This document shows positions 50,897 to 53,788 of a stretch of DNA of 61,695 nt, in pieces; positions within the stretch are counted from its first letter, which is position 1; every line of letters starts with the position of its first letter. Both the position numbers and the translations under genes were made by a program. The notes below the pieces were generated by a model. The model did no database searches. It was not told the origin of the DNA and saw nothing but the letters and a program-made list of their open reading frames with translations. Source of the DNA: Escherichia coli (lineage in GTDB: Bacteria; Pseudomonadota; Gammaproteobacteria; Enterobacterales; Enterobacteriaceae); the NCBI RefSeq assembly GCF_003334385.1, contig NZ_QOWN01000027.1. One strand, given 5' to 3'.

Positions 50897-52579
50897 ATGA
50901 AGTCTGCATTAAAGAAAAGTGTCGTAAGTACCTCGATATCTTTGATACTGGCATCTGGTATGGCTGCATTTGCTGCTCATGCGGCAGATGATGTAAAGCT
51001 GAAAGCAACCAAAACAAACGTTGCTTTCTCAGACTTTACGCCGACAGAATACAGTACCAAAGGAAAGCCAAATATTATCGTACTGACCATGGATGATCTT
51101 GGTTATGGACAACTTCCTTTTGATAAGGGATCTTTTGACCCAAAAACAATGGAAAATCGTGAAGTTGTCGATACCTACAAAATAGGGATAGATAAAGCCA
51201 TTGAAGCTGCACAAAAATCAACGCCGACGCTCCTTTCATTAATGGATGAAGGCGTACGTTTTACTAACGGCTATGTGGCACACGGTGTTTCCGGCCCCTC
51301 CCGCGCCGCAATAATGACCGGTCGAGCTCCCGCCCGCTTTGGTGTCTATTCCAATACCGATGCTCAGGATGGTATTCCGCTAACAGAAACTTTCTTGCCT
51401 GAATTATTCCAGAATCATGGTTATTACACTGCAGCAGTAGGTAAATGGCACTTGTCAAAAATCAGTAATGTGCCGGTACCGGAAGATAAACAAACGCGTG
51501 ACTATCATGACAACTTCACCACATTTTCTGCGGAAGAATGGCAACCTCAAAACCGTGGCTTTGATTACTTTATGGGATTCCACGCTGCAGGAACGGCATA
51601 TTACAACTCCCCTTCACTGTTCAAAAATCGTGAACGTGTCCCCGCAAAAGGTTATATCAGCGATCAGTTAACCGATGAGGCAATTGGCGTTGTTGATCGT
51701 GCCAAAACACTTGACCAGCCTTTTATGCTTTACCTGGCTTATAATGCTCCGCACCTGCCAAATGATAATCCTGCACCGGATCAATATCAGAAGCAATTTA
51801 ATACCGGTAGTCAAACAGCAGATAACTACTACGCTTCCGTTTATTCTGTTGATCAGGGTGTAAAACGCATTCTCGAACAACTGAAGAAAAACGGACAGTA
51901 TGACAATACAATTATTCTCTTTACCTCCGATAATGGTGCGGTTATCGATGGTCCTCTGCCGCTGAACGGGGCGCAAAAAGGCTATAAGAGTCAGACCTAT
52001 CCTGGCGGTACTCACACCCCAATGTTTATGTGGTGGAAAGGAAAACTTCAACCCGGTAATTATGACAAGCTGATTTCCGCAATGGATTTCTACCCGACAG
52101 CTCTTGATGCAGCCGATATCAGCATTCCAAAAGACCTTAAGCTGGATGGCGTTTCCTTGCTGCCCTGGTTGCAAGATAAGAAACAAGGCGAGCCACATAA
52201 AAATCTGACCTGGATAACCTCTTATTCTCACTGGTTTGACGAGGAAAATATTCCATTCTGGGATAATTACCACAAATTTGTTCGCCATCAGTCAGACGAT
52301 TACCCGCATAACCCCAACACTGAGGACTTAAGCCAATTCTCTTATACGGTGAGAAATAACGATTATTCGCTTGTCTATACAGTAGAAAACAATCAGTTAG
52401 GTCTCTACAAACTGACGGATCTACAGCAAAAAGATAACCTTGCCGCCGCCAATCCGCAGGTCGTTAAAGAGATGCAAGGCGTGGTAAGAGAGTTTATCGA
52501 CAGCAGCCAGCCACCGCTTAGCGAGGTAAATCAGGAGAAGTTTAACAATATCAAGAAAGCACTAAGCGAAGCGAAATAA
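50897..52579 (+). CDS. ydeN: Periplasmic sulfatase (560 aa)
   Basis: Signal peptide; sulfatase N-terminal region with SGPSRAAIMTGR, where Ser occupies the formylglycine position. Start at ATG 50897 preceded by AGAGGAACA. Confidence 0.85.
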   Translation: MKSALKKSVVSTSISLILASGMAAFAAHAADDVKLKATKTNVAFSDFTPTEYSTKGKPNIIVLTMDDLGYGQLPFDKGSFDPKTMENREVVDTYKIGIDKAIEAAQKSTPTLLSLMDEGVRFTNGYVAHGVSGPSRAAIMTGRAPARFGVYSNTDAQDGIPLTETFLPELFQNHGYYTAAVGKWHLSKISNVPVPEDKQTRDYHDNFTTFSAEEWQPQNRGFDYFMGFHAAGTAYYNSPSLFKNRERVPAKGYISDQLTDEAIGVVDRAKTLDQPFMLYLAYNAPHLPNDNPAPDQYQKQFNTGSQTADNYYASVYSVDQGVKRILEQLKKNGQYDNTIILFTSDNGAVIDGPLPLNGAQKGYKSQTYPGGTHTPMFMWWKGKLQPGNYDKLISAMDFYPTALDAADISIPKDLKLDGVSLLPWLQDKKQGEPHKNLTWITSYSHWFDEENIPFWDNYHKFVRHQSDDYPHNPNTEDLSQFSYTVRNNDYSLVYTVENNQLGLYKLTDLQQKDNLAAANPQVVKEMQGVVREFIDSSQPPLSEVNQEKFNNIKKALSEAK

Positions 52580-52591
52580 CTAAACCTTCAT

Positions 52592-52617
52592 GCGGCGGAT
52601 TTTTCCGCCGCCTTATT
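52592..52617 (+). terminator. Stem-loop with U-tract between ydeN and ydeM (terminator or attenuator)
   Basis: GCGGCGG-atttttc-CGCCGCC followed by TTATTG, 14 nt before the ydeM start. Confidence 0.5.
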
Positions 52618-52630
52618 GAGCGAGATAGCG

Positions 52631-53788
52631 ATGCACGTTACAGCCAAGCCCTCCAGTTTTCAATGTAATCTCAAATGTGATTACTGTTTTTACCTTGAAA
52701 AAGAGTCGCAGTTTACTCATGAAAAATGGATGGATGACAGCACTCTGAAAGAGTTCATCAAACAATATATCGCAGCGTCTGGCAATCAGGTCTATTTTAC
52801 CTGGCAAGGCGGTGAACCCACTCTGGCTGGCCTGGATTTTTTCCGTAAAGTTATTCACTATCAACAACGCTATGCAGGCCAAAAACGTATTTTTAATGCA
52901 TTACAAACGAATGGCATTTTATTGAATAATGAATGGTGTGCCTTTCTCAAAGAACATGAATTTCTGGTTGGTATCTCGATCGATGGCCCCCAGGAGTTAC
53001 ATGACCGTTACAGACGCAGTAATTCAGGTAACGGTACTTTTGCAAAAGTGATAGCAGCCATCGAGCGTCTGAAATCATATCAAGTAGAGTTTAATACGTT
53101 AACCGTCATTAATAACGTTAATGTCCATTACCCTCTTGAGGTTTATCATTTTTTAAAATCTATCGGCAGTAAACATATGCAATTTATCGAATTGCTAGAA
53201 ACCGGGACGCCGAATATTGATTTCAGTGGTCATAGTGAGAACACATTCCGTATCATTGATTTTTCTGTGCCTCCCACGGCTTATGGCAAGTTTATGTCAA
53301 CCATTTTTATGCAATGGGTTAAAAACGATGTGGGTGAAATTTTCATCCGTCAGTTTGAAAGCTTTGTCAGCCGTTTTTTGGGGAATGGGCATACCAGTTG
53401 TATTTTCCAGGAGTCCTGCAAGGATAATCTGGTTGTTGAAAGTAATGGAGACATTTACGAATGCGACCATTTTGTCTATCCACAGTACAAAATTGGAAAC
53501 ATTAATAAATCTGAACTCAAAACGATGAACAGTGTACAACTGACAGCGCAAAAAAAACGGATTCCAGCGAAATGTCAGCAATGTGCATATAAACCTATCT
53601 GCAATGGCGGTTGTCCTAAGCATCGTATTACTAAAGTAAACAATGAGACTGTTTCTTATTTTTGCGAAGGTTATAAAATCCTTTTTTCAACCATGGTACC
53701 TTATATGAACGCCATGGTAGAGTTAGCTAAGAACAGAGTACCGCTTTACCACATTATGGATGTTGCAAAACAAATGGAGAATAATTAA
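52631..53788 (+). CDS. ydeM: Anaerobic sulfatase-maturating radical-SAM enzyme (385 aa)
   Basis: Radical-SAM motif CNLKCDYC near the N-terminus and C-terminal SPASM-like Cys clusters ([14 protein letters not shown]). Confidence 0.85.

Follow-up and report, generated by a model that had tools for sequence, protein, structure and literature searches.

Which enzyme activates a sulfatase whose active-site motif holds serine at the position to be converted to formylglycine, and on what does such a sulfatase act? We address these questions for ydeN and ydeM of Escherichia coli, two adjacent genes in a stretch of 61,695 nucleotides (contig NZ_QOWN01000027.1 of assembly GCF_003334385.1; the whole stretch is called the window below) of E. 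coli DNA with the gene order ydeP-safA-ydeO-ydeN-ydeM-yddA. We hold with high confidence, proposals on hairpin, regulation and (the weakest step) substrate included, that ydeN-ydeM is a self-contained two-gene operon in which YdeM makes formylglycine in YdeN.

The pair itself is known: it is long annotated but uncharacterised, well conserved and ordinary, and the present finding is a re-discovery. YdeN is identical to RefSeq WP_001295684.1 (b1498 in MG1655) and YdeM to WP_001301030.1 (b1497 in MG1655); in E. coli genomes RefSeq labels ydeN as 'sulfatase-like hydrolase/transferase' and ydeM as 'anaerobic sulfatase maturase'. Schirmer and Kolter (1998) reportedly dealt with this pair, and Benjdia et al. 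(2007, FEBS Lett) are reported to have dealt with aslB and ydeM deletion mutants. Our additions are incremental: strict retention of the serine and synteny across two phyla, mobility of the cassette, a conserved hairpin between the genes, and the nearest sulfatase subfamilies.

A serine-type sulfatase and its putative maturase

The two genes and the elements of their products are as follows.

50897–52579, plus strand: ydeN, ATG at 50897 and TAA at 52577–52579, 560 residues, predicted Ser-type S1 formylglycine-dependent sulfatase precursor
50897–50983, plus strand: predicted Sec-type signal peptide of YdeN, MKSALKKSVVSTSISLILASGMAAFAAHA, cut before ADD, assigned by inspection
51290–51325 (S132 to final R), plus strand: sulfatase signature V-S132-G-P-S-R136-A-A-I-M-T-G-R, with Ser132 (TCC, 51290–51292) as predicted formylglycine precursor
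52631–53788, plus strand: ydeM, ATG at 52631 and TAA at 53786–53788, 385 residues, predicted radical-SAM/SPASM anaerobic sulfatase-maturating enzyme (anSME; SAM, S-adenosylmethionine)
52664–52687, plus strand: radical-SAM cluster motif C12-x3-C16-x2-C19 (CNLKCDYC), invariant in 15/15 orthologues
53399–53665, plus strand: SPASM region of YdeM with eight cysteines (C257, C263, C278, C315, C318, C324, C328 and C345)

YdeN matches the Pfam Sulfatase family (PF00884) at E 1e-70 over residues 58–408 and the full model (1–301); 88 solved sulfatases match it at E <1e-3; and it carries the (C/S)-x-P-x-R signature followed by xxx-(L/M)-T-G. When 42 sequences, from orthologues to distant relatives, are aligned, residues D66, D67, P134, R136, H185, H286, D345 and K364 never vary, and conservation is at least 90% at K183 and N346; with reference to the structures of ARSA and PAS, we take these residues to be the full metal-binding and catalytic set. 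The AlphaFold2 model of YdeN (predicted local distance difference test score, pLDDT, 90.8) has a predicted fold that matches S1 sulfatases, with low pLDDT at residues 1–7 and 21–40, in the signal-peptide region. By inspection, the N-terminus has a basic N-region, a hydrophobic core and A-H-A ahead of the cleavage site, without a twin-arginine motif, and the N-termini of orthologues are equivalent. YdeN, which has been listed as periplasmic (PMC10746267), is thus probably exported to the periplasm.

YdeM scores 505.5 bits against the NCBIfam model TIGR03942 'anaerobic sulfatase maturase' (curated cutoff 349.45; model positions 1–362 of 363) and matches Pfam Radical_SAM (3e-22) and SPASM (2e-6). 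Among solved enzymes it matches anSMEcpe of Clostridium perfringens (PDB 4k36) at E 6e-63 over residues 4–359. YdeM and anSMEcpe (PDB 4k36–4k39) share the CX3CX2C motif, the eight auxiliary-cluster cysteines, which in YdeM are invariant in 15/15 orthologues and align with those of anSMEcpe, and the active-site Cys-Asp pair, represented in YdeM by Asp279 directly after C278; the native partner of anSMEcpe is a Cys-type sulfatase, whereas YdeM has a Ser-type neighbour. From the anSMEcpe structure and a review (PMC7771511), the eight cysteines of YdeM are predicted to bind two auxiliary [4Fe-4S] clusters. The initial annotation had paired a Ser-type sulfatase motif with an adjacent radical-SAM maturase, and both parts are borne out: the two open reading frames match the coordinates given exactly, YdeN has S132-G-P-S-R136 with the catalytic set complete, and YdeM passes the curated TIGR03942 cutoff with 11/11 cluster-binding cysteines.

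In the mechanism that we propose, building on anSME chemistry as reviewed in PMC7771511, a YdeN precursor still bearing its Sec signal peptide would be acted on, unfolded and in the cytoplasm, by YdeM, whose [4Fe-4S] clusters would number three, one that cleaves SAM and two auxiliary ones. There YdeM would abstract the C-beta hydrogen of Ser132 in S-G-P-S-R, leading to oxidation to C-alpha-formylglycine; matured YdeN would be exported to the periplasm, where the hydrated formylglycine and a divalent metal held by D66, D67, D345 and N346 would hydrolyse a sulfate ester. A Ser precursor would be maturable by an anSME-type enzyme only; serine rather than cysteine at this position would therefore tie the activity of YdeN to YdeM, or possibly to its paralogue AslB, and to conditions that suit oxygen-sensitive Fe-S clusters. 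Formylglycine formation in YdeN, and its dependence on YdeM, are thus what these sequences lead us to expect.

The arrangement has counterparts. The Klebsiella pneumoniae AtsA/AtsB pair reportedly consists of a Ser-type periplasmic arylsulfatase and a radical-SAM maturase (Szameit 1999, Marquordt 2003 and Grove 2008). It presumably shares with YdeN/YdeM the serine in (C/S)xPxR, the signal peptide and an adjacent, co-oriented gene for a radical-SAM/SPASM maturase, and we assume the same logic of cytoplasmic maturation followed by export for both pairs; the difference is that atsB reportedly precedes atsA, whereas in ydeN-ydeM the sulfatase gene comes first, with a hairpin between. YdeN, which is nearest to S1_19 (see below) and carries a 25-residue insertion, would further differ from AtsA in belonging to another sulfatase lineage. 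In E. coli itself, AslA/AslB resembles YdeN/YdeM in joining a Ser-type sulfatase (S136-S-P-T-R) to its own neighbouring anSME, but the asl genes lie on opposite strands whereas ydeN-ydeM forms an operon, and AslA is only 27% identical to YdeN and AslB 41% identical to YdeM. The K-12 genome of E. coli thus encodes two sulfatases of the Ser type, and each of them is paired with a separate anSME. Bacteroides thetaiotaomicron is likewise a gut bacterium whose periplasmic carbohydrate sulfatases are matured by an anSME (PMC7771511); there, one maturase serves many sulfatases in polysaccharide utilisation loci, in contrast to the one-to-one pairing of ydeN-ydeM, which has no linked glycan-degrading genes.

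Other hydrolases of the alkaline phosphatase superfamily use serine directly as nucleophile, and YdeN might do the same with Ser132, dispensing with formylglycine and leaving YdeM to modify another protein or peptide. A Ser-type sulfatase from a metagenomic fosmid that is active in E. coli and in vitro without added maturase (PMC8379841) speaks for this explanation, as do the sub-threshold scores of YdeM against peptide-modifying SPASM maturases, e.g. DynA (218 bits; cutoff 450). YdeM passes a curated equivalog cutoff, however, only for the sulfatase maturase model; YdeN keeps the full recognition motif S-x-P-x-R-xxx-x-T-G; and a maturase gene is adjacent in every complete locus, in two phyla, with no conserved gene for a candidate peptide substrate nearby. 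We consider direct catalysis by Ser132 very improbable.

For maturation of YdeN by YdeM, the points on the other side of the balance are these. Our literature search found no experimental report of formylglycine in YdeN or of YdeM activity, and no substrate or activity assay for YdeN. AslB is a second anSME in E. coli, so that YdeM may not be uniquely required and cross-maturation is possible. Finally, the closest Cys-type sequence relative of YdeN (protein P0008 of GCA_009183535.1, 43% identity) also has a linked anSME, which means that linkage to a maturase gene is not specific to Ser-type enzymes.

Retention of serine and mobility of the pair

A scan for orthologues with one genome per species yielded 16 loci with 54–100% protein identity, in Escherichia, Leminorella, Citrobacter, Cedecea, Mixta, Grimontia, Psychromonas, Anaerobiospirillum and Fusobacterium. 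S-G-P-S-R is kept in all YdeN orthologues of the scan, and in 15/15 complete loci (the window and 14 others; nine genera, two phyla) a YdeM orthologue lies directly downstream on the same strand.

The formylglycine position is serine in 17/17 orthologues and paralogues examined, encoded by TCC, TCT, TCG or TCA in Gammaproteobacteria and by AGT or AGC in three Fusobacterium loci; the TCN and AGY codon families are two mutational steps apart, via Cys (TGY) or Thr, and synonymous sites in the signature motif are saturated within the YdeN clade. A HMMER search of 1.84 billion representative proteins revealed a sharp gap: the YdeN clade extends to ~54% identity and is all Ser-type, and after it relatives begin again only at 45% identity and below, with Cys in almost every case (among the best 150 matches, 109 Cys, 23 Ser and 2 misaligned). 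Given that Cys is one step away and that anSMEs accept Cys as well as Ser (PMC7771511), yet Ser is kept, these sequences suggest that Ser132 is retained by selection for serine itself. As to the reason, our guess is either enforced dependence on the linked maturase or avoidance of an unpaired cysteine in an exported protein.

After clustering of neighbouring open reading frames, only ydeN and ydeM were common to different genera. On conjugative plasmids of Proteus and Providencia the pair adjoins a tyrosine recombinase, and it is also found on several E. coli plasmids (plasmid-borne pair: PMC8615141). Since no other neighbour is conserved and plasmid copies exist, the pair behaves as a self-contained mobile two-gene cassette. 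Conserved neighbours were also considered as a clue to the substrate and rejected, as none occurs across genera and the flanks are unrelated, mostly housekeeping genes (ThiI, HtpX, GAPDH, NhoA, BrnQ and others).

Several individual loci deserve mention. The Proteus sp. plasmid pNDM_NMG38-2 (extract positions 488–5802) and the Providencia plasmids are multidrug-resistance plasmids; the Proteus cassette, 69.7% identical at the nucleotide level, keeps SGPSR and an intercistronic hairpin of other sequence. The E. coli IncF plasmid p14EC033d (extract positions 2733–5988) bears a second ydeN paralogue (77.5% identical, with SGPSR) that adjoins a porin gene and is flanked by IS3 and IS1; lacking its own maturase gene, this paralogue, if active, would need to borrow a chromosomal maturase. 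A contig of a 'Candidatus Nanosynbacter' metagenome-assembled genome (JARKOR010000108.1) encodes proteins 100% (YdeN) and 99% (YdeM) identical to those of E. coli, and is almost certainly mis-binned E. coli DNA.

Mobility brings up another explanation, namely that the pair is cryptic or redundant: YdeN would be unmatured or inactive under all natural conditions, or else matured by AslB, and the locus a recently acquired passenger cassette. Rho-dependent termination within genes often marks poorly translated or foreign genes. Such termination occurs inside the 3' end of ydeM (PMC7815308), and insertions of IS1 or IS2 break ydeM but spare ydeN in some strains (NZ_CM132968.1, NZ_OZ501666.1); the mobility of the cassette, the second anSME, and the lack of any sulfatase activity or substrate of YdeN in the literature found point the same way. 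On the other side, the locus is intact across the species, the 3.4-kb region being present at 80% coverage or more in 5324/5426 complete E. coli genomes; all catalytic residues and cluster cysteines are kept down to 54% identity, with synonymous sites at saturation; and transcription, translation and regulation of ydeN are all documented (PMC10746267, PMC3936929; control by CRP and AraC). We therefore regard a cryptic or redundant pair as improbable, if less so than direct catalysis by Ser132, and retain the reading of a functional operon in which YdeM matures YdeN.

Promoter, intercistronic hairpin and transcript ends

The following elements lie upstream of ydeN.

50602–50617, no strand assigned: CRP site, AGTGACATCCATCACA (TGTGATGGATGTCACT on the other strand), one mismatch to TGTGAN6TCACA
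50816–50831, no strand assigned: predicted second CRP-like site, TGTGACTAACTTCACT, one consensus mismatch, overlapping the -35 of the promoter-like element
50830–50859, plus strand: predicted sigma-70 promoter-like element for ydeN-ydeM, CTTACA, 18 nt, TAAAAT, consensus match 9/12
50885–50890, plus strand: Shine-Dalgarno sequence AGAGGA of ydeN, 6 nt ahead of the ATG, kept in Escherichia species

The ydeN-ydeM pair is transcribed from upstream of ydeN, and ydeM has been described as co-transcribed with ydeN (PMC10878103). The sequence TGTGATGGATGTCACT was reported as the ydeN CRP site by chromatin immunoprecipitation in enterotoxigenic E. coli (PMC4287617); Footprint-seq gave a ydeN CRP site with a dissociation constant of ~1.8 nM centred on K-12 position 1582815 (PMC12871828), which maps to ~50606 in the window; and ydeN is among the CRP targets identified by genomic SELEX (systematic evolution of ligands by exponential enrichment; PMC3105977). 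The predicted site at 50816–50831 had no match among the published CRP sites that we found. It is kept in E. albertii and Escherichia sp. with one non-consensus spacer change, while the flank upstream diverges, and ~42 bp separate its centre from the downstream transcription start that the -10 at 50854–50859 would predict; this -10 and its flanking bases are kept in E. albertii. At pH 4.4 ydeN falls ~40-fold along with malE, malM, xylF and treC (PMC10746267), and its drop together with mal, xyl and tre genes fits CRP dependence.

AraC, for its part, binds upstream of ydeN only with arabinose present (PMC3738151), and an araC mutant over-expresses the ydeN-ydeM operon (PMC10878103). A scan for the AraC half-site TAGCN7TCCATA with up to two mismatches gave 42 matches where chance alone would yield 48.6, and the ydeN promoter region contained none of them. 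Translation of ydeN is seen in ribosome profiling (PMC10746267), and YdeN has been detected in an anaerobic rumen-fluid proteome (PMC3936929). Within the proposed mechanism, CRP and AraC/arabinose would act at the promoter upstream of ydeN, and a leaky hairpin downstream would lower the maturase message. Farther upstream, a terminator-like hairpin directly past ydeO (50543–50565; TGGGGCAG...CTGCCCCG then CGTTGTTTTT), called on both strands, apparently separates the ydeO and ydeN transcription units.

The remaining elements lie between the genes and past the operon.

52592–52611, plus strand: intercistronic hairpin GCGGCGGA-UUUU-UCCGCCGC, with the tail CUUAUUGA at 52612–52619
52618–52625, plus strand: weak Shine-Dalgarno-like sequence GAGCGAGA for ydeM, assigned by inspection
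53839–53870, plus strand: candidate operon-end terminator hairpin 50 nt past the ydeM stop, -21.1 kcal/mol, z = -4.05, 0/200 shuffles as stable

The initial annotation had noted a hairpin between the genes that may attenuate or couple their expression, and folding confirms the stem at 52592–52611, which is kept with compensatory changes in other genera. In E. coli 7 of the 8 base pairs in the stem are G-C, the loop is 4 nt long, and the 51-nt ydeN-ydeM spacer folds at -18.7 kcal/mol (z = -3.06; 1/200 shuffles as stable). A stable hairpin is found in 9/9 gammaproteobacterial spacers, that of the Proteus plasmid included (z -2.3 to -3.8), with differing primary sequences; RNAalifold on seven spacers gave 8 consensus pairs, every one of which has undergone a compensatory double change in one spacer or more. 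That the hairpin exists and is conserved through compensatory changes makes it plausible that it serves as an attenuator or sets the ratio in which the two genes are expressed. It matches no Rfam family: the one candidate from a scan of 50400–54200 was a minus-strand match to isrK, which at 20 bits falls short of the gathering score of 50 and was rejected as chance. A dispersed repeat, such as a repetitive extragenic palindrome, was likewise rejected, as the hairpin is single-copy in the window.

How transcription reaches ydeM is indicated by several observations. The hairpin is 19 nt from the ydeM ATG in E. coli (19–25 nt in Enterobacterales); a consensus scan found no promoter-like site on the plus strand in 50860–53226, and so none inside ydeN; and in the araC mutant ydeM rises along with ydeN (PMC10878103). 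Together, the short gap, the lack of a promoter-like site and the joint rise indicate that ydeM is expressed by read-through past the hairpin. At an equal distance from the start codon, orthologues of ydeM have GAGG, GGAG, AGAG or GGUGGG as Shine-Dalgarno counterparts.

We think it most likely that the hairpin acts as a leaky intrinsic terminator and a 3'-end stabiliser, leading to more sulfatase than maturase message. Three results run counter to a role in termination or to its generality. The E. coli tail CUUAUUGA has only 4 U in 8, below the 5 U in 8 that our terminator scan requires, and for this reason the hairpin was not called (the E. albertii tail CUUAAUGA is likewise weak and uncalled). 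Four supplementary tables of Term-seq data from LB and M63 glucose (PMC7815308) contain no ydeN-named entry, so that strong termination at the E. coli hairpin is unsupported. The hairpin is found in 0/3 Fusobacterium spacers, which hold a ribosome-binding site only.

The poor U-tract and the missing Term-seq entry could also be read as signs that the hairpin is no attenuator at all: it would be a 3'-end or processing barrier that stabilises the ydeN message, or else an efficient terminator followed by a separate ydeM promoter, for which the Anaerobiospirillum spacer, 250–520 nt long, has room. A separate promoter is hard to reconcile with the narrow hairpin-to-ydeM gap in Enterobacterales, with the plus strand of ydeN being free of promoter-like sites, and with ydeM following ydeN in the araC mutant. 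At the same place, moreover, several orthologues have tails like those of canonical intrinsic terminators, with 5–6 U in 8 (Leminorella, Citrobacter, Cedecea, Mixta and Grimontia). We consider a purely non-attenuating hairpin unlikely, while giving it appreciable weight; stabiliser and leaky-terminator roles are compatible, and both would yield more sulfatase than maturase message.

At the far end of the operon, a Rho-dependent termination region is placed at K-12 position 1579674 (PMC7815308, supplementary file 2), which maps to ~53747 on the plus strand, inside the 3' end of ydeM and 41 nt ahead of its stop codon. The candidate terminator hairpin at 53839–53870 was not called by the terminator scan, its loop being 8–10 nt and its U-run lying partly within the stem. 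The annotated small-protein gene yneP (53754–53876, minus strand, 40 codons) overlaps the last 35 nt of ydeM and contains this hairpin.

Substrate class and biological meaning

What does YdeN act on? Its substrates had not been reported as of 2024 (PMC10878103) and our literature search found no report of a substrate or activity either, in agreement with the initial annotation, which had held the native substrate not to be established. By sequence, the nearest solved relatives are S1_19 carrageenan sulfatases (E 2e-52 to 2e-42; the PDB names one of the entries an exo-4S-kappa-carrageenan sulfatase, 4S standing for 4-O-sulfated), and then an S1_16 enzyme at 7e-39. Foldseek with the AlphaFold2 model gave the same order, S1_19 before S1_16, with E ~1e-36 for S1_19 and a template modelling score of 0.80–0.82 relative to the target. 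Judged by these best sequence and fold matches, YdeN appears nearest to SulfAtlas S1_19, and it carries an insertion that the S1_19 structures lack.

51146–51220, plus strand: insertion of ~25 residues (84–108) in YdeN, past the metal-binding DD and ahead of the formylglycine motif

S1_19 structures align to YdeN residues 54–84 and then from 109 onward, leaving residues 84–108 without counterpart. The segment is kept in all orthologues and, judging from equal spacing, seemingly also in Cys-type relatives of 40–45% identity; AlphaFold2 models the region as helices at 98–107 and 110–118. The S1_19 enzymes ZgCgsA (9hh2/9hh3), Ps i-CgsB (6b0j/6bia) and PsS1_19B (6psm/6prm) share the catalytic core of YdeN, including H-x-x-(C/S)-G-P-S-R, but the solved S1_19 enzymes differ from YdeN in being Cys-type, marine, carrageenan-acting and free of the 84–108 insertion; 9hh2 and 6psm are seemingly Cys-to-Ser mutants.

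S1_16 enzymes of gut bacteria are specific for 4-O-sulfated galactose (Gal) or N-acetylgalactosamine (GalNAc) (bioRxiv 10.1101/2025.09.11.675649). The locus of P0008 (extract 115–10348) encodes AgaR, KbaZ, a sulfatase, a KdgM porin, the anSME, P0008 itself, a DUF2264 protein, KbaY and KdgK, and looks like a locus with which a Gram-negative bacterium breaks down sulfated GalNAc-uronate disaccharides. Because S1_19 and S1_16 are the nearest subfamilies, because of the S1_16 specificity and because of the P0008 locus, we rank a 4-O-sulfated Gal/GalNAc unit of a host or dietary glycan first as the substrate class of YdeN, by analogy with these relatives and at a likelihood somewhat short of even.

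Two points tell against this ranking. In the fold alignment YdeN has 26–28% overall identity to S1_19 structures, and this low identity makes transfer of the substrate from S1_19 weak; and the gut S1_19 enzyme Amuc_1182 was inactive on the mucin-type substrates tested (bioRxiv 10.1101/2025.09.11.675649).

A substrate other than a 4-O-sulfated galacto-sugar has a probability close to one half: either mucin N-acetylglucosamine (GlcNAc)-6-sulfate or a small sulfate ester, such as that of an aryl compound or a steroid, scavenged in the gut. Mucin GlcNAc-6-sulfate has been put forward as a speculation in PMC10878103, which notes 33% similarity of YdeN to the GlcNAc-6-O-sulfatase BT4656 and co-induction of ydeN with nagABE and galP. 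The sulfonated azo dye FD&C Red 40 induces ydeN as its only transcript (PMC10653809), and in none of the genera is ydeNM linked to a gene for a glycoside hydrolase or a transporter, which would suit a small substrate that diffuses freely. The match to BT4656 is, however, far weaker than those to S1_19 and S1_16 enzymes, and the nearest Cys-type relative, P0008, sits in a GalNAc/tagatose-pathway locus. BT4656 (5g2v, S1_11, GlcNAc-6-sulfatase) as a model for YdeN was accordingly downgraded (E 6e-30, Foldseek rank 39, below S1_19 and S1_16).

Combining the preferred class, a 4-O-sulfated Gal/GalNAc unit, with the other proposals, we tentatively sketch a picture that is more likely wrong in some part than right throughout. 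The pair would be a mobile, self-sufficient 'plug-in' cassette that supplies gut Gammaproteobacteria and Fusobacteria with a periplasmic 4-O-sulfatase for Gal/GalNAc of host glycans (chondroitin/dermatan-type or mucin-type). Serine would be kept for strict dependence on the co-transferred, oxygen-sensitive maturase, the conserved leaky terminator would fix the enzyme:maturase ratio, and control by CRP and AraC-arabinose would give the cassette a low rank in the hierarchy of sugar use.

To our knowledge, none of the sulfatase genes of E. coli K-12 has yet had a sulfatase activity attributed to it. YdeN is a remaining 'y-gene' with clear predicted chemistry and no substrate, in a pair that belongs to the core of the species, is under the control of CRP and AraC, and showed induction in a mutant adapted to the mouse gut. 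Our results leave the picture of Ser-type sulfatases and their maturases unchanged; they name the substrate class to try first, 4-O-sulfated Gal/GalNAc, and the conditions under which the operon should be induced (anaerobic growth at neutral pH without glucose, in an araC mutant or without arabinose), and they identify the hairpin as a conserved part of the cassette that is worth keeping in expression constructs. The substrate of YdeN would show whether E. coli desulfates host glycans itself or depends on Bacteroides to do so.

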